Below, piece after piece: positions 2,818 to 46,565 of a stretch of DNA of 64,000 nt (within the stretch, counting starts at the first letter, position 1; every line of letters starts with the position of its first letter). Origin of the DNA: Holophagales bacterium (GTDB lineage Bacteria > Acidobacteriota > Thermoanaerobaculia > Multivoradales > UBA5704). Below the pieces are notes generated by a model. It had not been told where the DNA came from and did no database searches. It saw only the letters and a program-made list of their open reading frames with translations. A program made the translations under genes and the position numbers. Location of the stretch: the NCBI GenBank assembly GCA_031390755.1, contig JANMTS010000105.1:64007-128006 (forward strand), in the 5' to 3' direction.

Positions 2818-4995
2818 TCAAATCTTTCCCACGATCCCCAGCGAGAAGCTTCGTCCCCGCGCCAGAGTCGCGGTCACATCGCCGGCCTCGAAGTAGGTCC
2901 GGTCGGTCAGGTTGCGCCCGGCGAGCCGCAGCTCCAGCGGGTCGGAGATGTGCCAGCCCGTGCCGATCTCCCAGGTCGTGTAGCCCGGCCGCTCCGCCTC
3001 GTTCGGACCGGGGCGGTCGTCGCGCAGGACGACGGCGTTGCGCAGGTAGGCGAAGAAGCGGGCGTCCGCCCAGCGCAGCGTGGTGAAGGCGCCGTTGGCC
3101 GGGATGTCGTCGATGGGCACGCCTCCGGACTCGCCGCGGATCGACGTGACCGCCAGCTCCAGGCTGATACCGGCCACGAGCGGCATCTGGGCCTCCAGCT
3201 CGAAGCCCTTGATCTCCGCCTCGCCGCGGTTGCGGAAGAAGAAGTCGTTGCCGTCGCCGAAGCGCTCGATCAGGTCGTCGATCTCGTAGAGGTAGCCGAA
3301 CGCCGCGATCGAGCCCCGGCCCACGGTCCAGCGGACCGAGGCGTCGTACTGCAGGCTCGTCTCCGGCTCGAGGTCCGGGTTGCCGGTCACGAAACCGCGG
3401 CCGCTCGGACCGCGGAAGAAGCGGTCGGAGAGCGTGGGATCGCGGAAGCCGCGCGCCACCTGGAGAGTGGTCGTGAGGTTGGCCACCGGGCTCGCGGTCA
3501 GGGAGACGTACCCCGACATTGAGGAGCTCTCGTTCGAGCGGTCGCCGTAGAAGCCGCCCGTGTTCTCGCTCTTCACCTGGTCGCCGCGCACGCCCACCGC
3601 GAACAGGGCGCGGGCTCCGAGCGCATGGTCCCACGAGGCGAAGAGGCCGGTGTCGGTGCGGGAGGCGTCGTCGATCGAGGCGGGATTCGACACGCCGGTC
3701 GAGTTGCCGTTGGCGTCGAACGTCTCGCGCGAGGTCAGCGACTCCAGGTTGAAGCGCGACAGCACCTCGGCGCCGATCTGCAGCCGGCCGCCCGCCGCCT
3801 GGCGAGTGGCCACGGCGCGCAGCGAGCCGTCGTCTGAAACCGTCTCGGCGCGGTCGATCCGGCGGGTCACGGTCGGCGCGGGCACCCGGTCGCGGGTCAG
3901 GTTCAGCCGGTAGGTGCCGTAGAACAGCGCCAGCTCGATGCTCTCCCAGCCGCCCACCGGACCGCTGTCGAGGGCGACGTTGAAGCGCCGTGAGCTCTCC
4001 TTCGGGTAGTAGCTGCGCATCACGTTCGAGTCGATCGTCGGGTTGTCGACATCCGTGGCGTCCACCAGGGAGAACGCCACTCGCAGCCGGCCGGCCGGCG
4101 TGTCCACGGCATAGCGCAGGGCGCCGCCGCGGTCCTCATAGGAGGAGTTGGGGATCGGATCGCCGCCTCCGGACTCGCCGTCGCCGGACTCGCGCTGGTG
4201 GTACTGGGCGAGCAGGGCTCCGCCGAGCACGTCCGTCGAAGCCTCCAGGCCGAACGAGTCCTCGTCGTCCGCGCCGAAACCGGTGTTGAAGCTGTAGCGC
4301 AGCGAGGCGCCGTTGCCCGGCTCGGGATAGACCGGACGGGCGTTGATCACGCCGCCGAAGGCGTCCGAGCCGTAGGCCACGGATCCCGGGCCGCGGGCGA
4401 TCTCCACGGACGCCAGTGTGAAGGGATCGAGGTAGGCGGCCGACGATCCGGCCCGGCGCTCGGTGGTCACCCGGGAGCCGTCGAGCAGCACGACGGTGCG
4501 CCCGCGGGCGAGACCGCGGATGGCCGGCACGCCGGTCGGCCCTTCCTCGGACCGCGAGACGCCCGCGATGCCCTGGACCACGTCCACGAGCCGGTGCGGC
4601 CGGCGCTGCTCCAGATCCTCCTCGCCGATCAGCGTGGTCGCGGCGGCGGGCGGCGTCTCCAGGCCCGGGGCGACGCCCGAGGTGACGGTGACGCTGTCCT
4701 GGAACGAGGTGGGGATGGCCGCCTGGAGGGTCTCTCCAGAGAGCGATTCGAAAACCATGGGGGCCGACACCTGGCCGCCGGGGCTGGTGGCCACAAGGCG
4801 GAACGGGACCGGCGGATCGGGGACGATGCGGAACCGGCCCTCGGCGTCGGTGGTCACGGAGCCGGCCAGGCCGACCACGGACACCTGGTGGCCGGCGGCG
4901 GGCGTGCCGTCGGGATGGACCAGCACGCCCTCGACCGCCCCGGCGAGGGCGGGGACGAGCAGCAGGGAAAGCAGGAAACACGAAATCTTGCGCAT
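2818..4995 (-). CDS. TonB-dependent receptor with N-terminal carboxypeptidase-regulatory-like domain
   Basis: ORF 2818..5031. I prefer the start at MRKISCFLLSLLLVPALAGA (ATG 4995-4993), which gives a signal peptide. Plug region ...AIRGLARGRTVVLLDGSRV...SVEIARGPGSVAYGSDAFGGVINA, then a long beta-barrel. Confidence 0.9.
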   Translation of the reverse strand: MRKISCFLLSLLLVPALAGAVEGVLVHPDGTPAAGHQVSVVGLAGSVTTDAEGRFRIVPDPPVPFRLVATSPGGQVSAPMVFESLSGETLQAAIPTSFQDSVTVTSGVAPGLETPPAAATTLIGEEDLEQRRPHRLVDVVQGIAGVSRSEEGPTGVPAIRGLARGRTVVLLDGSRVTTERRAGSSAAYLDPFTLASVEIARGPGSVAYGSDAFGGVINARPVYPEPGNGASLRYSFNTGFGADDEDSFGLEASTDVLGGALLAQYHQRESGDGESGGGDPIPNSSYEDRGGALRYAVDTPAGRLRVAFSLVDATDVDNPTIDSNVMRSYYPKESSRRFNVALDSGPVGGWESIELALFYGTYRLNLTRDRVPAPTVTRRIDRAETVSDDGSLRAVATRQAAGGRLQIGAEVLSRFNLESLTSRETFDANGNSTGVSNPASIDDASRTDTGLFASWDHALGARALFAVGVRGDQVKSENTGGFYGDRSNESSSMSGYVSLTASPVANLTTTLQVARGFRDPTLSDRFFRGPSGRGFVTGNPDLEPETSLQYDASVRWTVGRGSIAAFGYLYEIDDLIERFGDGNDFFFRNRGEAEIKGFELEAQMPLVAGISLELAVTSIRGESGGVPIDDIPANGAFTTLRWADARFFAYLRNAVVLRDDRPGPNEAERPGYTTWEIGTGWHISDPLELRLAGRNLTDRTYFEAGDVTATLARGRSFSLGIVGKI

Positions 4996-5844: not shown

Positions 5845-6180
5845 GTGTTGCAACTCCGCTCTTCTGCTACAAACAAGGTTATGTTGCAACAAATAAGGAT
5901 TCCCGTTCAACGGGAAAGCTTATCTGTTGCAAGTTAACCTTCTCTGTTGCAGCATAACCTTATCCCGCGGCCGAGAAGGTTATCCTGCAACAAAGAAGGT
6001 TTCCCGATCCTGGGATAAGCTTCTTTGTTGCAACTTGGGTTTATTTGTTGCAGCTTAACCTTCTCCCGAAGCCGCGTAACCTTCTTTGTTGCAACTTAAC
6101 CTTATCTGCCGCGGGATAAGGTCTCCCGAAGACGGGGAAACTTTGTTTGTTGCAGATGGAACCCAGGGGAATGCAAAAAT
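5845..6180. repeat. AT-rich iteron block (TGTTGCA(A/G)C x8 direct +1 inverted; TAACCTT/AAGGTTA inverted repeats; TTATCC/TTATCT boxes)
   Basis: GTTGCA starts near 5847, 5883, 5925, 5945, 6026, 6046, 6087 and 6138, plus one inverted copy at about 5987. Hand-counted GC is about 46% over 5881-6180, against about 70% in the flanks. Confidence 0.85.
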
Positions 6181-27428: not shown

Positions 27429-27455
27429 AGTGGTTGGTCGGTCCCGCCCGGGAGG

Positions 27456-27976
27456 GAAGCCTCCGTCGGGATGACGGATGCTTCCGGCACGGCGCCGGAC
27501 CGAGAAGTCGGCCGCCGGAAGCATCCGCCGTGAACACGGACGTTTCCGGCGTACGACTGAAGCTTCCGGCGCGACGCCGGACCGGTAAGTCAGTCGACGG
27601 GAGCTTCCACCGTGAACACGGACGCATCCGGCGTGACGACTGAAGCTTCCGGCGCGGCGCGGAACCGGGAAGTCGGTCGCCGGAAGCATCCGCCTTGAAC
27701 ACGGACGCTTCCGGCGTACGACTGAAGCTTCTGGCGCGACGCCGGACCTGTAAGTCAGCCGACGGAAGCTTCCGGCGTGAACACGGACGCATACGGCATG
27801 GCGACCGAAGCTTCCGGCGCGGCGTCGGATCGGGAAGTCGGCTGGCGGACGAGTCCGGCACGACTACGGAAGCTGCCGCCATGACGGCGGACGCATCGGG
27901 CAAGACGACGGAAGCTTCCGGAGTGAGGACGGACGCGTCCGGCACGGCGCCGGATCGGGGGAAAGTGCCTTTCCCC
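27456..27976. repeat. tandem array 1 of 41-42-nt palindromic units (alternating A/B types, ~165-nt higher-order repeat) ending in the GGGGAAAG-tgc-CTTTCCCC hairpin
   Basis: GAAGC(T/A)TCC anchors at 27456, 27518, 27559, 27601, 27642, 27683, 27724, 27765, 27807, 27869 and 27911. Block 27518-27682 is repeated at 27683-27848. Confidence 0.9.
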
Positions 27977-28044: not shown

Positions 28045-28155
28045 ATGCCTCGAGCCAAGAAGACTTCCGTTCAGTACCTCATCCTCAGCCTGATCGCGTT
28101 GCCGGTCGTGATGTTCATCGCGTTCATCGCGTACTACCTTCTCAAGGGTCTTTGA
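28045..28155 (+). CDS. possible 36-aa single-TM small protein
   Basis: Hand translation gives MPRAKKTSVQYLILSLIALPVVMFIAFIAYYLLKGL*. GGAG lies 5 nt upstream, and the ORF ends 6 nt before the next gene. Below the ORF-track length cut-off. Confidence 0.4.
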   Translation: MPRAKKTSVQYLILSLIALPVVMFIAFIAYYLLKGL

Positions 28156-28161
28156 GCCGCG

Positions 28162-39342: not shown

Positions 39343-39643
39343 CGCTCGCGTCCGGCAAATCGTTGGCCGAACCAAGTCCCACCTGATCTCTCTACGTGGC
39401 GACGACTTCCCCGTGGCGGGAATACCCGCAGTGGCACGATCTCATGGTCATCTGGCATTCAGCGCTTTGCGTTGGCCGCTTGCTCTCTGAAACGGCCATC
39501 GCGGACGCCTTCTGGGATACGTGTATCTGCCCGGATCGAGTCTGCCCCGACCTCACGCCACCCGATTAAGCCTAGAATGGGGTCTTTTACGGCAGAGCGA
39601 AGTTACTCGGTTGCTACGGGTCTGTTTCCCCAATGGAGGATCC

Positions 39644-42490
39644 ATGCTGGAGCCGGGCTTTACGTTTGTCCCCAAGGCAGTGGGAGAGTTGAGGAGTCCT
39701 AGAAAGGAAAGGATCGTCCGGGCTACTTTCTCGCCGGGAGGTCGCCTCTTGGCCGCGACCACGGATGCGGGCCAGATTCTGGTTTGGCGATGGGATGGTG
39801 AGGGTTATTCCCTCTCCGCCGAGAGTAAGACCATCGACGGTGGTAGCGTCAAGCCCTTATGCCTGGGTTGGTCGTCCAGGGCAAGCCTCCTCATCACTGG
39901 CTGGAGCGATGGTCTCCTGCGCGTCTACGACAGCAAGACCCTGGCGCTCGTCCGCCAATCTGAGGACGGCTCCGGCGGCGCCGTGCTCTGCTTGGCGGTT
40001 CATCCTCATAGCGCAGTCTTCGTTTCGGCCGCCGAGGGCGAGGGTGGACTCCGCGTTTGGAACGCAGCCAGGAAGAGGCTCCAGCCCATCCAAGAGGTCT
40101 CCGGCCCCGAGCAACAGACTTGGGGACTCTCCTGGCATCTCAGGGGAGGGCTCCTGGCTTCCTGCGGAGCCGACGAGAGGGTCCGGATCTGGCAGTATGA
40201 GGATAGATCGGACAAGCTTACTGAGAGCCAGCACATCGTCTCTCAGGCAAGGCAGGTCGTCTGGTCTCCCGATGCCGACCCTCTCCTCGCACACATCGAG
40301 CCCGCGGGGTGTCTCAAGCTGTGGCGGACCCGGCAGCGGGGGGCGGTCACCCTTCCTCACTCCGGAGAGGTCACTTCTGTCGTCTTCTCTCCCGACGGGT
40401 CGGTTTGCATTTCGAAGTCTTCCACGGGCCAGCTCCTCCTCTGGAGGTCGCCCTCCGGCGAGTTCCTTGAGTATATCGAGGAGAGAAAGATCACCTCCAT
40501 AGAGCCAGGCGGGCCACCTTTTCCAGCTGAGTTGGCGGTCCGCTCGGTCCAGGCACGGCCAGATTGGAACACTGAGGAACGCTCTGTCGCGCCTTCCGTC
40601 ACCCTTGCCTTCGATCTAGTCAACGCCGACCCGAGCGACCTCTGCCTCCGCATTTGGCGGCTTCGTCGAGAGGAGCGGGAGAGCCAGCCGCCGCCGCCAC
40701 GAGTTCGGGACTACGTTGTCACCTACCCTCAGCCGGGGACGCAGACAGTGGTCCAGGAGTCGATCCGTTTCTCGGGCCTCCAAGACCAAAAGGCCAGGGA
40801 GGATCAACTCGGATTCAAACCCTATGTCGAGGCCGTTGCCGACTTCCTCACCGACGCCGGAACGCGCCCGCCGCTCACCTTTTCGATCGAAGGGGAGTGG
40901 GGAGCTGGAAAGTCCTCCTTCATGGAGCAGGTTAGACAGCGAATCGAAGATAGGGAAGCCGGCAACCGGAAGGGGCCTCGGAGCCGGTTCCAGCGCCTCT
41001 GGCGAGGAAACCAGAGTCACATCCTCTCCTTCAATCTCTGGAGGCACGACAAAGAGGAATCTGTCTGGGCAGCCTTCGTCCTGGAACTCCTGCAGCAGCT
41101 CCGCCGGCAGTGCGGCCTCCCTCGCCGCCTTCTCGGCTGGGCCAATCTTTTCGTCTGGCGCCTTCAATGGACGAATGCTCTCTTCGGTTTTCTCCGGCTC
41201 GCTGCCTGGTTGATCATCATCGTGCTAGGCGCGATTGTCGTCTCGAACCTCCCGACTCAAACGCTGAGGCCCACCCAGACGCCGACTGCCGTGGACGATT
41301 CCACCAAAATACAGGAAGTCATCGATTCAATCGGGGATGCCCTCGACTCGCCCGAGAGCCTAGCGGTGCTCGTCCTCGTGGTTACGCTCCTGCTGAACGC
41401 CAAGCAACTCCTCGGGAACCCTTTGGATCTAGAGATCGGAAAGTACCTACGGTCCTCGGACTGGGAGAACCGAACCGCTTTTGTTGAACGCTTTCACAAG
41501 GATTTCGACCAGATCGTCCAGGCCTATGCTGGAAAAAAGAGGGTCTACGTCTTCGTCGACGACCTCGACCGGTGCGATGTCCCGCGAGCGGCCGACCTCA
41601 TGCAGGCGATCAACCTACTGATCTCCGAGAACCCGAACCTCCTCTTTATCTTAGGAATGGACCGGCAGAAGGTGGCGGCGGGCCTCGCGGTGAAATTCGC
41701 GAAGATCCTTCCCTATCTGCGGACGGAGGCGGTCCCCCAGGGCTACGGCCCGGCTGAGGGCCTGGTCTACGGATACGAGTTCATCGAGAAGTTCATTCAA
41801 ATTCCCTTCCAGCTCCCCCGCCCCTCCCGCGCGGACCTCACGAGATTCCTTCGTTCCCTCAGTCCTTCTGCAGACACCGGTGCCCCGACGGACCTGATCG
41901 ATCCCGGCCAAGAAGAACCGGAGTGGTCCGAAGATCTCGACCAGCCGACGCTTCCTCCTATGCCCCACCCTGCTCAGGATCCAACCGGACCTGGTTCCTC
42001 CATGCACTCCCTTCCGGCCGACAGGACCGTCCCGGCCCAACTGCCGACTCGGGAGGAATTGAGTCTCGCCATCGGCTTCGACTCAGGAATCGTTAGGGAG
42101 ACCGTCCTTCTCGTGGCCCCGGCTCTCGGTAACAACCCACGCCGGATCAAGCAATTCATCAATTCATTCCGGCTTCGTGCCTTCCTCGCCTATCATACGG
42201 GCCTGCTTGCCGGGCGGGAGAGCCATCCAGACAAGGTCACCTTCTACCAGCTTGGCAAGCTGGTAGTGTTGAGCCTGCGCTGGCCCCTCCTCCTAGCCGA
42301 GTTGCACGAGCGCCCCAACCTCCTTCGCAAGCTGGAAGCGGCTGCCACCGATCCGACCTATCTCCCTGGTGATTCGGAAAAGCGTTGGACGAATCAACCG
42401 CGACTCATGGCCCTGCTCCGCTCCCGGAGCTCCTCGCCCCACAAGAACCTGGCCTCATTGGACGTCAAACTCTTGCTGCGGATCTCTTGA
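39644..42490 (+). CDS. WD40 beta-propeller fused to a KAP-family P-loop NTPase (membrane-inserted)
   Basis: ORF 39521..42490 trimmed to ATG 39644 (GGAGGA RBS). About 7 WD-like blades (…GQILVWRWD, DGLLRVYD, GGLRVWN, DERVRIWQ, GCLKLWR, GQLLLWR, CLRIWRL). Walker A GEWGAGKSSF (~40893-40919). Two TM helices are inserted before Walker B VYVFVDDLDRC (~41543-41575). Confidence 0.85.
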   Translation: MLEPGFTFVPKAVGELRSPRKERIVRATFSPGGRLLAATTDAGQILVWRWDGEGYSLSAESKTIDGGSVKPLCLGWSSRASLLITGWSDGLLRVYDSKTLALVRQSEDGSGGAVLCLAVHPHSAVFVSAAEGEGGLRVWNAARKRLQPIQEVSGPEQQTWGLSWHLRGGLLASCGADERVRIWQYEDRSDKLTESQHIVSQARQVVWSPDADPLLAHIEPAGCLKLWRTRQRGAVTLPHSGEVTSVVFSPDGSVCISKSSTGQLLLWRSPSGEFLEYIEERKITSIEPGGPPFPAELAVRSVQARPDWNTEERSVAPSVTLAFDLVNADPSDLCLRIWRLRREERESQPPPPRVRDYVVTYPQPGTQTVVQESIRFSGLQDQKAREDQLGFKPYVEAVADFLTDAGTRPPLTFSIEGEWGAGKSSFMEQVRQRIEDREAGNRKGPRSRFQRLWRGNQSHILSFNLWRHDKEESVWAAFVLELLQQLRRQCGLPRRLLGWANLFVWRLQWTNALFGFLRLAAWLIIIVLGAIVVSNLPTQTLRPTQTPTAVDDSTKIQEVIDSIGDALDSPESLAVLVLVVTLLLNAKQLLGNPLDLEIGKYLRSSDWENRTAFVERFHKDFDQIVQAYAGKKRVYVFVDDLDRCDVPRAADLMQAINLLISENPNLLFILGMDRQKVAAGLAVKFAKILPYLRTEAVPQGYGPAEGLVYGYEFIEKFIQIPFQLPRPSRADLTRFLRSLSPSADTGAPTDLIDPGQEEPEWSEDLDQPTLPPMPHPAQDPTGPGSSMHSLPADRTVPAQLPTREELSLAIGFDSGIVRETVLLVAPALGNNPRRIKQFINSFRLRAFLAYHTGLLAGRESHPDKVTFYQLGKLVVLSLRWPLLLAELHERPNLLRKLEAAATDPTYLPGDSEKRWTNQPRLMALLRSRSSSPHKNLASLDVKLLLRIS

Positions 42491-42567
42491 TCGGCCTGAT
42501 GTCGTCCCCAGGAGAAGAACGTGGAATTGAGACGACTTGACTATCGCGGCATCGACTCGCTCGGCGT

Positions 42568-42852
42568 CTACAGGCCGCCGCATTCCGCTGCCCGCTCGAA
42601 GCTGACCAGTCTCCGCACGAGAGCGTTGTATCGGGAATGAGCCGAGTCTGTTCCCGAGCTGGCGAGGAGCTCGTAGAGGCGGTGCTCCGCAGTCGGGATG
42701 ACCTGGTCGGGCACGGGGAGGCCGATCCGTCGGAGTCGGGGAGCCCCGATCGACACCAGCAGGGCGGGGATCGACTCGATGCCACGAACGAGATCGGCGA
42801 GCCCTTCCTCCACCAGATCCCCTCCCGGCAATGCGTGCAGATTCAGAGCCAT
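42568..42852 (-). CDS. hypothetical 94-aa protein
   Basis: ORF 42568..43212 trimmed to ATG 42852-42850 (MALNLHALPGG...). The upstream part of the ORF is the repeat array. Confidence 0.45.
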   Translation of the reverse strand: MALNLHALPGGDLVEEGLADLVRGIESIPALLVSIGAPRLRRIGLPVPDQVIPTAEHRLYELLASSGTDSAHSRYNALVRRLVSFERAAECGGL

Positions 42853-42928
42853 TCCGAGAGTATAGGGTCCGCGAACTGCCCAGGGGCCGACCACGTCCAG
42901 CGGGAGTCTGTCCGCGACGTGCAACCGA

Positions 42929-43440
42929 GGGAAAGGCGCTTTCCCCGCATCCGGCGCCGCGCCGGACGCATCCGCCGTGATGCCGGAAGCTTCCGCCGTC
43001 ATGACGGACGCGTACGGGACCACGACGGAAGCGTCAGCCGTCATGCCGGACGCGTACGGGACCGCGCCGGAAGCTTCAGCCGTCACGACGGACGCGTACG
43101 GGACCGCGACGGTAGCTTCCGCCGTCATGACGGACGCGTACGGGACCGCGCCGGAAGCTTCAGCCGTCAAGCCGGACGCGTACGGGACCACGACGGAAGC
43201 TTCCGCCGTCACGACGGATGCAACGGGGCCGCGACGGAAGCTTCAGCCGTCACGACGGACGCGTACGGGACCACGACGGAAGCTTCAGCCGTCACGACGG
43301 ATGCAACGGGACCGCGACGGGAGCTTCCGCCGTCATGCCGGACGCGTACGGGACCACGCCGGAAGCTTCCGTCGTCATGCCGGATGCGTACGGGACCACG
43401 GCGGAAGCGACCGGCGCCGTGCCGGAGATCGCTGGAAAGG
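42929..43440. repeat. tandem array 2: ten 41/42-nt units GGAAGCTTC(C/A)GCCGTCA(T/C)GACGGACGCGTACGGGACC(A/G)CGAC plus degenerate end units; terminal hairpin GGGAAAG-gcg-CTTTCCC at the left end
   Basis: Unit starts at 42985, 43027, 43069, 43111, 43153, 43195, 43236, 43278, 43319, 43361 and 43403. Two units are 41 nt and the rest 42 nt. Confidence 0.92.
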
Positions 43441-43538
43441 TGTGCGGCTGGGATGGGCCGACCTCTTCCGGGGTCGCTCGTCGCCCGAGATGTCCTCCGG
43501 GGAGGCCAGAGTTGCGGGGCCTGATATCCTTCGGGGCC

Positions 43539-46500
43539 ATGCGCAACATGACGCGGTTTCTTCTTTCGCTCCTCCTCGTTCCTGCCTTCGCGCAGGCCGA
43601 GGTTCTCCCCTGCATGCCCTGCGCGGGCGTCCGGTTCGAGCCCGTTCAGTCCCTTCCCGTAGCGGCAGCCGAGACGTTTCGGCCCGGGCCGATCGCGGAA
43701 GCTCAGCCGTCCTCCGCTCCGATGACGATGTCGAACCCGGCCGAGCTTCCGGGTCTGCTGGCTCAGGCGAAGCTGGAGAAGGGGAGTCCCCTCTTCGTGG
43801 CCTGGGATGTCCAGCTCGACGGGACGGCGGGTCCGGATGCCAATCCAGGGGACACGGCGGCCCGCATCGTCGAGGCCGGCGGCACGCCCTGGATCTCCCT
43901 GGTGTTTCACACTCCGGCTCCGGTCGCCCAGAACGCCGAGCGGCTCCAGGCCGAGCTGCGCGCCGCGGTCGCGGTGGCCGCAGCGGCTCCTCCCCAGGCT
44001 TGGTTCCAGATCGTCTGGCGGCCCGACGGCCTGGAGGGGCAGCCGGAGGGGCAGATCGCGGCGGCCGACTATGCGTTCCTCCTGAAGCGCGCGGCCGTGG
44101 CGATCACCGGCGCCCGCTCCGAAGTTCGCGTGGCGACCGGTCCCCTGCCCGCCGATCCGGCGTTCCTGGAGGCGTTCTACGGTGAGGAGGTCACGGCCTA
44201 CCTGGATGCGGTCGCCCTTCAGCCCGCGGCGGCCGAGGCTCTGACCAGGGCTTCGGAGGCTGTCGAGCGGCTCGATCCGGGCCGGCCGGTGGTGCTTGAT
44301 GCCGTGCCCATGCCGGCCGCCGCGGGCGAGATCCTGTCGGACTCCGCGCGCAACGCGGTGCGCGGCATCGGATTGACGCTGTTCCGGACCACCCTGGTCA
44401 ACGGCCAGACGCTCTCGCCGCTCGCGCTGCTGGCCCGGGAATTCGCCGGCGACGTCTCCTACGGCGCTGGCGACGTGCCCACCGGCGCCCAGGAGGCGTG
44501 GACGTTCGTGCGCGGCAAGGATTACTCGTTGCGCGTCATCGCCCTGGCTCCCCCGGGTGCGAGCGAGCTGGCGCTGCGGTTCTCCGATCCCTATCTGCGG
44601 CGGCCGACCCGGTTCCCGTACACGTTCGACAAGGTCGGGGCTCCGCAGGGAGACGCCCAGGAGAAGGGGCTCGTGGTGCGGCTCGACAACCCCGGCCGCG
44701 TGGCGGTGATCGGGCTTGAACGAGCCACCGCCGCCGAGCGCGAGGGGGTCGAGGAGAAGGTCGACGTGGCCACGGCGCGCGAGATGCCGGTCGAGGAGAT
44801 CCTCCGCCGGCTCCAGGCGTTCGAGGACGCGCAGGACCGCAAGCTCGATCACTACCAGGCGATCAACACCACCCACCTGCGGTTCCAGCCGGCGGCAGGC
44901 ACGCAGACCTTCGAGGCCACGCTCCAGGGACCGTTCTTCGTGGGTGACACGACGGGCTCGGACTGGGCCTGGCAGACGCTCTACGTCAACGGCGTGAAGT
45001 GGCGCAGCAAGTCGATCCCCGAGATCCCGCTCGTGCAGCCGGAGAAAGCTGCGGCCCTGCCGCTCCAGATCCTGTTCACCAAGCAGTACCGCTACCGGCT
45101 GCGCGGCACCGACACGGTCGACGGCCGCGACGCCTGGGTGATCGACTTCGCTCCGGCCGGACCGGGCGAGCCGGGCAAGCTCTACCAGGGCAGCGTCTGG
45201 GTCGACCGGCAGATCTACGCCCGGCTGCGCACCCGCGCCGTCCAAGTCGGCCTGGAAGGCGAGGTCATCTCGAACGAGGAGACGATGACCTACTCCCCGA
45301 TCGACGCCCAGGGCCAGCCCGCGCCTTGGTCAGGCGAGAGCTACGTGCTGCCGCTGCACATCGTGGCCCAGCAGATCCTCTCGGTTGTGAATGCCACGAC
45401 GGTCGTGGAGCGCGAGACCGTGCTCTCGGAGGTGAAGGTCAACGCCGCGGACTTCGACGAGAAGCGCGCCGCGATCGCCGACACCGACGTGACCATGGTG
45501 CGCGACACGGACAAGGGGCTGCGGTATCTGGTGAAGGAGGAGGGCTCCGAGGAGCGCGTGGTCAAGGAAGGGTTCGACAAGAGCAAGCTCTTCCTGGCTG
45601 GCGGCGCGTTCTACGACGACGCGCTCGACTACCCGCTGCCGCTGGCGGGCGTGAACTACTTCAACTTCGACTTCCGCGGCACGGGCAAGCAGCTGAACGT
45701 TTTCTTCGCCGGCGCGCTGCTCACCGCCAACGTGGCCGAGCCGCGGCTCTTCGGCAGCAAGTTCGACCTCGGCGCGCAGGCGTTCGCCGTGGCGGTTCCG
45801 TTCAGCGACAGTCTTTACCGGGACGGCGAGGAGATCACCGGCGAAGAGGTGGACGTGCGCACCGCGAAGCTCGGCGTGAAGCTCGGCCGGCCGCTCGGGA
45901 GCTTCGTGAAGATCGGGCTCGACTACGACGTCCTCTTCCTCACCTACGGCGACACGGACAACACGGCCGACGGCTACGTGCCGCCGACCGACAACCAGAC
46001 CCACTCCCTGGAAGGCACGTTCAGCTTCTCGCGCGGCGGCTACGGCTTCCGCGCCAATGCGGGTTTGAGCCGGCGCTCGGAGTGGGAGCCCTGGGGCTTC
46101 GCGGGGAACCCGGACTACAGCGCGGACAAGGACGAGTTCATGCGCTGGGGCGCCCGGCTGAGCAAGAACTGGTATCTGCCGAAGTTCCAGAAGATCGGCG
46201 CCGAGGTCGACTATGTCTCGGGCTCGGACCTGGACCGGTTCAACAAGTACCAGTTCGGGTTCTTCGGCAGCACGCGCGTCCACGGCTATCAGTCGAACCG
46301 GGTGCGGGCGGAAGAAGCGCTGGCCGTTCACGGAACCTACGGCTTCGAGATCGGCCAGGCGCTGCGGCTCGACGCGGTGGGCGACGTGGCCTGGGCCACG
46401 GACGAGGCGACGGGGCTCGACAACGAGATGCTGGCGGGCGTGGGCATCGCCGGGACGTTCATCGGCCCGTGGCAGACGGTGGTGAACCTGGACGTGGGCG

Positions 46501-46565
46501 TGCCGGTGGCGGGGCCGGACGACGGGTTTGTGTTCTACGTGGTGTTCTTGAAGTTATTCAAGTAG
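43539..46565 (+). CDS. large outer-membrane protein: unknown N-terminal region + LolA/outer-membrane-lipoprotein-sorting-like module + Omp85/surface-antigen-type beta-barrel
   Basis: ORF 43218..46565 trimmed to ATG 43539 (MRNMTRFLLSLLLVPAFAQA, a signal peptide). ...DGRDAWVIDFAP...KLYQGSVWVDRQIYARLR is LolA-like. The C-terminal 350 aa are beta-barrel-like and end in F-K. Confidence 0.7.
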   Translation: MRNMTRFLLSLLLVPAFAQAEVLPCMPCAGVRFEPVQSLPVAAAETFRPGPIAEAQPSSAPMTMSNPAELPGLLAQAKLEKGSPLFVAWDVQLDGTAGPDANPGDTAARIVEAGGTPWISLVFHTPAPVAQNAERLQAELRAAVAVAAAAPPQAWFQIVWRPDGLEGQPEGQIAAADYAFLLKRAAVAITGARSEVRVATGPLPADPAFLEAFYGEEVTAYLDAVALQPAAAEALTRASEAVERLDPGRPVVLDAVPMPAAAGEILSDSARNAVRGIGLTLFRTTLVNGQTLSPLALLAREFAGDVSYGAGDVPTGAQEAWTFVRGKDYSLRVIALAPPGASELALRFSDPYLRRPTRFPYTFDKVGAPQGDAQEKGLVVRLDNPGRVAVIGLERATAAEREGVEEKVDVATAREMPVEEILRRLQAFEDAQDRKLDHYQAINTTHLRFQPAAGTQTFEATLQGPFFVGDTTGSDWAWQTLYVNGVKWRSKSIPEIPLVQPEKAAALPLQILFTKQYRYRLRGTDTVDGRDAWVIDFAPAGPGEPGKLYQGSVWVDRQIYARLRTRAVQVGLEGEVISNEETMTYSPIDAQGQPAPWSGESYVLPLHIVAQQILSVVNATTVVERETVLSEVKVNAADFDEKRAAIADTDVTMVRDTDKGLRYLVKEEGSEERVVKEGFDKSKLFLAGGAFYDDALDYPLPLAGVNYFNFDFRGTGKQLNVFFAGALLTANVAEPRLFGSKFDLGAQAFAVAVPFSDSLYRDGEEITGEEVDVRTAKLGVKLGRPLGSFVKIGLDYDVLFLTYGDTDNTADGYVPPTDNQTHSLEGTFSFSRGGYGFRANAGLSRRSEWEPWGFAGNPDYSADKDEFMRWGARLSKNWYLPKFQKIGAEVDYVSGSDLDRFNKYQFGFFGSTRVHGYQSNRVRAEEALAVHGTYGFEIGQALRLDAVGDVAWATDEATGLDNEMLAGVGIAGTFIGPWQTVVNLDVGVPVAGPDDGFVFYVVFLKLFK

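Follow-up and report, generated by a model that had tools for sequence, protein, structure and literature searches.

Repetitive extragenic palindromes (REPs) fall into superfamilies with a common plan: a stem-loop with an unpaired GTAG or CGTC tag, dispersed in numbers from tens to thousands and lying mainly downstream of genes (PMC3733652). Those of the GTAG type have an associated REP-associated tyrosine transposase (RAYT; PMC3733652). Clusters and tandem arrays of REPs have been described as well; in Thauera, for instance, GTAG-1 repeats with 5-bp stems occur in tandem (Di Nocera et al. 2013, PMC3733652). For Acidobacteria, no REP family was reported, only tyrosine transposases associated with terminal inverted repeats (TIRs; PMC3733652). 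In REP325 of E. coli, an intergenic gap is occupied by six units of 77 bp, and each unit combines two palindromes (Y and Z2) with linkers (PMC4550694). Transcription reaches REP325 from the upstream gene, the repeats form cruciforms, and HU is linked to them (PMC4550694). Here, we describe a tandem array, called array 2, in a 64,000-nucleotide stretch of DNA (hereafter, the window) from a Holophagales bacterium (an acidobacterium of the Thermoanaerobaculia; assembly GCA_031390755.1, contig JANMTS010000105.1). We conclude that array 2 is probably a non-coding, hypervariable minisatellite of ~21-nt hairpin modules, that it is one member of a family, and that any effect is most likely structural. 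A first-pass annotation of the same DNA had named REPs, and bacterial interspersed mosaic elements (BIMEs), as the closest known analogy. Our comparisons support this choice.

Array 2 has the general plan of BIME-2 elements and REP325. It is an intergenic, non-coding tandem array, of variable copy number, with the potential to form cruciforms or hairpins; every unit combines linkers with a pair of short, imperfect palindromes that differ from each other. The differences are that modules are ~21 nt, rather than ~35-40 nt, and that there is no GTAG tag. Tandem Repeats Finder (TRF) places the repeat at 42984..43408 (period 42, 10.2 copies, 87% matches, score 605), with rows of a 21-nt sub-period starting at 42946. 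Each 42-nt unit is made of two 21-nt modules, GGAAGCTTCCGCCGTCATGAC and GGACGCGTACGGGACCACGAC, and each module contains a 12-nt near-palindrome, CGGA-N4-TCCG. At least five of the six pairs are kept in 17 of 23 modules, compared with 0.9% of random 12-mers from the window. The symmetry is perfect in only 3 of the 23, has been lost from module B, and involves short stems of 4-6 bp. Matches to the 23-nt head of the unit, GGAAGCTTCCGCCGTCATGACGG (allowing up to three mismatches), number 10, compared with none in 100 dinucleotide-preserving shuffles. The first-pass annotation had proposed ten units followed by a degenerate unit at 43403. The register bears this out, and the matches to the unit head coincide exactly with the ten unit starts that were proposed. 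The three palindromes that it assigned to the unit are present in the sequence, and the units at 43195 and 43278 are indeed 41-nt variants when read in register. Both variants read GGATGCAACGGG and share three identical changes (GGACGCGTACGGG to GGATGCA-ACGGG). Hence, a two-unit block was duplicated once the mutation had arisen.

The most informative result was obtained by comparing the orthologous site in relatives. The gene to the right of array 2, encoding a 1008-aa protein, is syntenic in close relatives along with its downstream neighbours (EAL, response regulator and PAS kinase), and protein identity is 81-82%. A block of ~80 nt (CGACCTCTCCCG ... GAGGCCAGGGTTGC ... CCTG[A/G]TATCCT), ending 8-9 nt before the ATG, is conserved in all six aligned loci. 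There is no conservation further upstream in this alignment. Three arrays abut the block. These are array 2, an array of 10.8 copies of a different 42-nt unit, GGGGAAAGCCTC[G/T]TTCCC-TACG-GTCGGCGGCTTGCCGAC-TCG, in locus L135 (GCA_036266195.1), and 3.4 copies of 41-nt, array-1-like units, orientated oppositely to array 2, in L132. Four loci have no array at the site (L129/L130, L131, L133/L134, and the P0122 locus, where the gap is only 209 nt). Thus, in the sequences compared, array length and module type vary, or the array is absent.

The same comparison explains the hairpin at the left end of array 2. The first-pass annotation located this, correctly, 77 nt from the ATG at 42852 (GGGAAAG-gcg-CTTTCCC(C), at 42929-42946), and the hairpin forms in minimum free energy folds of both strands. 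However, the view that it is a dedicated terminal structure was not borne out. In L135, the first module of the unit is the same hairpin, GGGGAAAG-N3-CTTTCCC, with the same lead-in (CCGGATCGG, CCGGATCGGGGGAAAG), and this module is tandemly repeated between 2459 and 2913. Hence, the hairpin in the window is better seen as a single leftover module, from a shared repertoire, than as a specialised terminus. In L135, a variant with a stem mismatch has spread to 8 of the 11 units, and CTAC (GTAG on the other strand) adjoins the hairpin stem in 7 of the 11. Across relatives, it is the architecture of ~21-nt palindrome modules that recurs in the sequences, while unit sequences turn over. The 42-nt composite unit, for which the first-pass annotation was aware of no described counterpart, matched no family in our searches, and is not itself the conserved entity.

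A second array in the window, array 1, has the same 21-nt modules as array 2, with super-periods of 82 and 165 nt. The two arrays align end to end, with 79% column identity, only if one is reverse-complemented. The tail hairpin of array 2 is conserved in the tail of array 1 (27955-27975), and homology ends just beyond this common tail (...CCGGAT-NN-GGGGAAAG-N-GCCTTTCCC-CGG). Therefore, arrays 1 and 2 are inverted copies of one ~520-nt element, and the homology of their units, already noted in the first-pass annotation, extends to the whole. The arrays are 15 kb apart, with their hairpin ends pointing toward each other. Between them are genes for an M20 peptidase, asd, aspartokinase (lysC), dapB, dapA and dapD; that is, a lysine-biosynthesis operon plus peptidases. 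Whether arrays 1 and 2 bound an island of 15 kb that moves or inverts was also considered, and rejected because the genes between have housekeeping roles and there are no TIRs or convincing target site duplications. Downstream of array 1, some 70 nt past its hairpin and after a TACAAT box, is an open reading frame (ORF) of 36 codons (28046-28156) for a hydrophobic peptide, MPRAKKTSVQYLILSLIALPVVMFIAFIAYYLLKGL. The ORF directly precedes an S41 peptidase gene and may encode a small membrane protein.

Array 2 is not translated as a conserved protein. The palindrome G-GAN-GCN-TCC reads [D/E]-A-S whichever strand is translated, which gives both strands a pseudo-repeat of 14 aa. Every reading frame is broken by the two 41-nt units, and the fragmented minus-strand ORFs described in the first-pass annotation (42568..43212, 43209..45245 and 43292..43615) all exist. 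The genome uses GAA 9.5 times per 1000 codons, versus 56.4 for GAG, and GCT 6.5 times, versus 57.7 for GCC. The pair GAA-GCT, made of codons 6-8 times rarer than their synonyms, sits in almost every array 2 unit. Codon scores for the best array 2 frames are 0.08-0.21 bits per codon, compared with 0.53+/-0.30 for genes and -0.71+/-0.58 off-frame. For array 1, the score is negative in all six frames and there are in-frame TAA codons. A peptide consisting of the repeat alone had no match, at E<=0.01, among 5.8 billion protein clusters. Furthermore, sister arrays have periods of 41, 41, 82, 83 and 104 nt, none a multiple of three. Most arrays are open in at least three frames simultaneously, which means little because, at 68% GC, open frames are the default. 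The combination expected of a coding tandem repeat (a unit that is a multiple of three, one open frame, and homologous peptides) was not found in array 2. The first-pass annotation had argued that TAEASxxVPYASxx is not a maintained coding repeat, and the frames, rare codons, lack of protein matches and positions of gene starts all agree.

Some further observations could be taken to favour a coding, or recently decayed, repeat that extends the N-terminus of a flanking protein. Briefly, one minus-strand frame is stop-free from unit 6 into the gene for a 94-aa protein on the left (in frame, as a 214-aa ORF), and the [D/E]-A-S frames have ~86% GC at third codon positions, besides the intermediate codon scores above. 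In addition, the source annotation, P0121 (1076 aa, MPDAYGTTPEASVV...), begins the 1008-aa protein inside array 2 (window 43335-43538), with the signal peptide 68 residues in. However, homologues of both flanking genes start outside the array, and an extension would leave the signal peptide internal. Since orthologues and a conserved ATG place the start at 43539, the start of P0121 is an artefact, and 43539 is the true start as judged from these alignments. Similarly, we rejected array 2 as an extension of the 94-aa protein at its N-terminus; the homologues begin with the equivalent methionine, and any N-terminal extensions of their own are not conserved. A coding origin is thus extremely improbable.

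Related arrays occur elsewhere. A pattern matching both window arrays, run on species-representative genomes, detected one, L003, with a 104-nt super-period, in an Acidobacteriota metagenome-assembled genome. We also scanned metagenomes for a two-core pattern, GGAAGCTTCC-N11-GGANGCNTCC, and obtained at least 33 loci with five or more phased cores. Among the matches listed, L016, L060, L110, L026, L014, L091, L030, L050, L005, L055 and L067 form a high-GC, bacterial-looking, intergenic group. Unit consensuses tie arrays 1 and 2, L132, L003 and L091 together above all shuffles, independently of any bias in the search pattern. Periods in the family are 41, 42, 82, 83 and 104 nt. The length of the module is 20.5-21.0 nt in all nine arrays measured, while its sequence is not constant. 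We conclude that the sequences suggest a family widespread in Thermoanaerobaculia and other Acidobacteriota-like, high-GC bacteria, with a breadth less certain than the match count suggests. Another set of loci (L036, L105, L029, L042 and L069), most from one related sample group, has a GC content of 0.48-0.55 and long GGAAGCTTCC-CAGAAGCTTCT satellites with a period of 10.5/21 nt. They probably have no relation to the acidobacterial arrays, may be eukaryotic, and were left out of the family. In L091 (1555-2142), L030 (330-891), L050 and L005, the units are exactly 21 nt long and number up to 28; their modules, CCRTTGGA-N4-TCCAAYGG, have an 8-bp stem and a variable 4-nt centre.

The setting of 11 arrays could be classified with crude gene calls. 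Six of them follow a co-directional stop codon at a distance of 11-83 nt, another five, array 2 among them, occupy divergent gaps, and no array is between convergent genes. Array 1 begins 27 nt after a co-directional stop codon. All 11 face at least one gene start (P ~0.04 under random placement, with the same crude calls), and the distance from the end of an array to a start codon is 45-115 nt. When 214 flanking ORFs were clustered all against all, no recurring neighbour gene emerged. Solitary modules were not found outside the two arrays in the window (for GGANGCNTCC, 4 were observed versus 2.5 expected; for the hairpin module, 0), or in ~70 kb from relatives, making ~130 kb in all. Note that viral contigs were too sparse to be a control for the 21-nt spacing.

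How does the family relate to known systems? There were no matches to Rfam 15, at gathering thresholds, in the window. A permissive scan gave only ~20-bit matches to miRNA-precursor models, for which gathering scores are 79-268. The array had no blastn match in plasmid and phage collections, and a full-text search for GGAAGCTTCC returned cloning primers only. No matching family was found in the literature, including that on REPs. Hence, the 42-nt unit is not a known, annotated repeat family in Rfam, the literature, or plasmid and phage records, and the array 2 family is apparently undescribed, fast-evolving, and analogous to BIME-2/REP325. Array 1 and several relatives start tens of nucleotides past a stop codon, as REP325 does after yjdM (PMC4550694). 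In contrast to BIME-2, array 2 and four others are in divergent promoter gaps, with none between convergent genes, and there are no solitary copies in the ~130 kb covered, compared with 355 annotated REPs in E. coli. The GTAG/CGTC superfamilies are similar in having short stem-loops, species-specific, fast-evolving families, and clusters or tandem arrays beside genes; the CTAC/GTAG beside the stem in L135 units is also reminiscent of GTAG REPs. Array 2 has the stem-loop expected of a REP (an extragenic, imperfect palindrome of 20-40 nt), though weakly. The window modules differ in having decayed stems, and no unpaired tag or 3-nt tail. Outside stems, GTAG and CGTC tags are absent from arrays 1 and 2, with GACG/CGTC found only within the extended palindrome. 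Annotated genes around the arrays in the window do not include a transposase. Membership of REP/BIME proper is not supported, because there is no clear GTAG/CGTC tag, there are no solitary copies in ~130 kb, and the arrays face gene starts instead of favouring gene ends.

Other tandem repeats are less similar. Bacterial minisatellites, or variable number tandem repeats (VNTRs), such as the mycobacterial interspersed repetitive units (MIRUs), share intergenic 40-100-bp units, differences in presence and copy number between relatives, and slippage or recombination. However, MIRUs are not built of palindromes, and are oriented within operons with small overlapping ORFs, whereas the arrays here are palindrome chains with a ~21-nt sub-period. 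Plasmid iterons and centromeres (parC of R1, the 20-bp repeats of pSK41, and iterons of 19-22 bp) also have ~10-20 sites, spaced by about two helical turns, upstream of a small gene. Array 2, by comparison, is chromosomal, beside housekeeping genes, with no adjacent Rep or Par gene, and its site sequence is not conserved at the orthologous site. Its neighbours encode the 94-aa protein and the secreted 1008-aa protein.

Our preferred explanation is that array 2 is a minisatellite of hairpin modules. Replication slippage and unequal recombination, aided by the palindrome hairpins, would add, remove and homogenise units, and the array would persist since the zone upstream of two divergent core promoters tolerates it. 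The decayed palindromes of array 2, and the stem-mismatch variant that has spread in L135, argue against strong selection on the exact sequence or stem. Any effect is most likely structural and unspecific with respect to sequence, by analogy with BIME-2/REP325 of E. coli. For example, cruciform extrusion could absorb negative supercoils arising from divergent transcription, or nucleoid proteins or gyrase might bind. We do not expect a dedicated, sequence-specific function, and there is no evidence of a new mechanism. Some points weigh against this explanation. The mechanism, both slippage and the structural role, is inferred only. The strict module length, equal to two helical turns across differing sequences, could mean selected phasing of protein-binding sites; a neutral minisatellite alone does not predict constant length. 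That every classifiable array faces a gene start, and none are convergent, hints at a promoter-related role. Finally, the picture of a conserved core and variable spacer in metagenomes is partly built into the search pattern, and copy number may be inexact in a contig assembled from a metagenome.

In a rival explanation, array 2 is a phased array of binding sites. Here, each 12-bp CGGA-N4-TCCG would be bound by a dimer of a putative DNA-binding or nucleoid-associated protein, and the 21-bp spacing would put sites on one face of the helix, just upstream of two core promoters, in the manner of iterons, centromeres or upstream activating arrays. Consistent with this, modules keep their length in every array regardless of sequence, palindromic cores are far above chance, and arrays stop a short way before start codons, never between convergent genes. 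A third, unrelated array in the window (5864-6155) is also phased, at ~20.3 nt. However, no gene, for a DNA-binding protein or otherwise, recurs beside the arrays, and the modelled 94-aa neighbour has no recognisable DNA-binding fold. In relatives, the same promoter has another type of module, or no array, so no fixed site is needed. The cores are mostly decayed, and there is no similarity to iterons or centromeres from plasmids or phage. We therefore think the proposal rather unlikely. A bolder version is a lineage-wide, cis-acting system, in which palindromic platforms, phased by two turns and upstream of (often leaderless) promoters across Thermoanaerobaculia, are read by a putative dimeric protein or nucleoid factor, with module turnover and copy number tuning, or phase-varying, the adjacent gene. 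If true, the gene tuned here would be that of a conserved surface protein. We regard such a system as decidedly improbable.

Alternatively, the array could act as RNA, either as a chain of hairpins in a 3' or 5' untranslated region, stabilising or attenuating the neighbouring mRNA, or as a nucleoid-associated RNA like naRNA4 from REP325; its 3' end would be the tail hairpin. Folding is better than in shuffles for either strand (z of -6.9 for minus and -4.5 for plus), the six related arrays just past co-directional stop codons, array 1 among them, have a REP-like position, and REP325 is a precedent (PMC4550694). Stem mismatches in L091 are also mostly G.T on one strand (23 versus 5). Conversely, this bias is absent in L030 and traces to a few duplicated variants, so that hairpin covariation is equivocal. 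No gene is upstream of array 2 on the oriented (minus) strand, meaning that it would need its own promoter, and neither promoter nor terminator is predicted. Folding predicts long-range pairs that connect different units, not discrete conserved hairpins, stem-breaking variants have spread in both L135 and array 2, and no Rfam family matches. A role as RNA is, in our judgement, unlikely. One specific candidate, a CsrB-like sponge RNA with GGA motifs, was dropped since the GGA triplets are in palindrome stems rather than loops, besides the missing promoter and terminator. Similarly, a sigma-54, or enhancer-type, promoter beside the hairpin does not fit the spacing read from the sequence. It is also conceivable that arrays 1 and 2 are two insertions of a non-autonomous mobile element, resembling a miniature inverted-repeat transposable element (MITE) or the REP-derived REPIN, mobilised by a transposase in trans. 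The two bounded copies are at unrelated intergenic sites, in opposite orientation, presence and orientation vary at the orthologous site, and there is a REP/RAYT precedent, including tyrosine transposases in Acidobacteria (PMC3733652). However, beyond the internal palindromes there are no TIRs, and neither array has a convincing target duplication. Aligning array head with tail recovered only the internal CCGGCRCGGCGCCGG palindrome, and flank repeats are weak (13/15 for array 2, none for array 1). There is no transposase between or beside the arrays, only the lysine-biosynthesis operon between them, there are no solitary modules in ~130 kb, and CTAC/GTAG is beside the stem in some L135 units only, with none in the window arrays. 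Hence, mobility is a very improbable explanation.

Features of the locus are listed in the table below.

Table. Array 2, its neighbours and its sister copy, in window coordinates
Feature	Position	Strand	Composition or description	Basis
Ten 42/41-nt units	42985..43402		Module A = C-GGAAGCTTCC-G + CCGTCATGACGG; module B = C-GGACGCGTAC-G + GGACCRCGMC	Register, TRF
First 41-nt variant unit	43195..43235		GGATGCAACGGGG; frame-shifting	Register
Second 41-nt variant unit	43278..43318		GGATGCAACGGGA	Register
Degenerate first unit	42943..42984		CCGGCGCCGCGCCGG palindrome + GGACGCATCC module; joins hairpin to unit 1	Register, TRF
Degenerate head unit	43403..43437		GGAAGCGACCGGCGCCGTGCCGGAG...; TCCGGCACGGCGCCGG in common with array 1 head	Register
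Tail hairpin module	42929..42946	-	GGGGAAAG-cgc-CTTTCCC; single copy	Sequence
1008-aa protein gene	43539..46565	+	Secreted, probably outer-membrane, protein	Signal peptide, orthologues, conserved ATG
Promoter-proximal block of 1008-aa gene	43460..43538	+	CGACCTCTYCCG...GAGGCCAGRGTTGC...CCTGATATCCT; outside repeat	Alignment of 6 orthologous loci
94-aa protein gene	42568..42852	-	Widespread uncharacterised family; start 42852	Homologues start at equivalent M
Array 1	27455..27975	+	Inverted sister copy of array 2 element; same tail hairpin	TRF, alignment

As the first-pass annotation proposed, array 2 fills the divergent gap between the genes for the 94-aa and 1008-aa proteins. Orthologues of the latter, across Thermoanaerobaculia, are ~1000 aa in length with a conserved ATG and signal peptide. 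Its earlier description as an outer-membrane protein is plausible, given the signal peptide and barrel-like C-terminus, but there is no sequence match in Pfam, NCBIfam or PDB. The sequence TGnTATCCT is 8 nt before the ATG of this gene. On the other side, 6 nt separate TATACT (42864-42859, minus strand) from the ATG of the 94-aa gene, and TATACT-N7-ATG is also found in L124. The positions of these putative core promoters suggest that both flanking genes produce leaderless, or near-leaderless, mRNAs.

The 94-aa protein family has 690 matches, and members start at an equivalent methionine (MDLxA[FL]PGGDLV...), with unrelated N-terminal extensions where these exist. Family members stand alone, are fused to antitoxin-like domains (PF03683, PF02604 and PF09720), or form the N-terminal domain of DUF6036 proteins. 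The AlphaFold2 model of the 94-aa protein has five helices and a predicted local distance difference test score of 91, with no fold match in PDB. An operator array for this protein was rejected, since the model is confident and has no match to a DNA-binding fold. Directly upstream of the closest homologue, at L124 2437-2732, is an array of 7.2 copies of a 41-nt unit (GGGATAGCTTCGCCAAGCCCT + GGGATAGCTTGCCGAGGGCC), ending in its own hairpin, CCCGG-taa-CCGGG. The homologue (2862-3143) is followed by a DUF6036 gene. Linkage between arrays and the 94-aa family was not significant, with an upstream array at one of four other homologue loci (L124, and none at L125-L127). No metagenome array, among those listed, is beside a gene of this family. 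The site upstream of the 1008-aa orthologue is a hot spot of small accessory genes that differ between relatives (L129, L132, L133, L135, and window 39521-42852). These include DUF433+PIN, PIN, a 102-aa ORF and a 123-aa ORF; in the window, they are the 94-aa gene and a gene for a WD40-KAP NTPase. The latter two have atypical codon usage, with scores of 0.05 and -0.03, respectively, versus 0.53 for typical genes.

Two other repeats are present in the window. The third phased array, which is intergenic, has ~9 copies of YTTNTYTGTTGCAR, in both orientations, with spacings of 20, 41, 61 and 81 nt, all multiples of the ~20.3-nt step. Its inverted arms are 94 nt long, its AT content exceeds that of the genome (68% GC), and it may be an array of sites for a regulator. 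The other repeat, detected by TRF at 2502-2597, has a 15-nt unit, GGAGCGGTCTCCTGG (6.8 copies, 71% matches), and overlaps one with a 12-nt unit.

The array family does not overturn current understanding. A practical consequence is that public annotation has already been misled, and wherever such arrays occur in high-GC genomes from metagenomes, gene callers will report 'repeat proteins' that are spurious. As VNTR markers, the arrays could also help to type strains of these uncultured soil bacteria. They are a convenient natural system in which to compare neutral minisatellites with phased protein or structure platforms. Acidobacteria gain a family of extragenic palindrome arrays, with an unusually regular module of ~21 nt and fast module turnover at an orthologous site.

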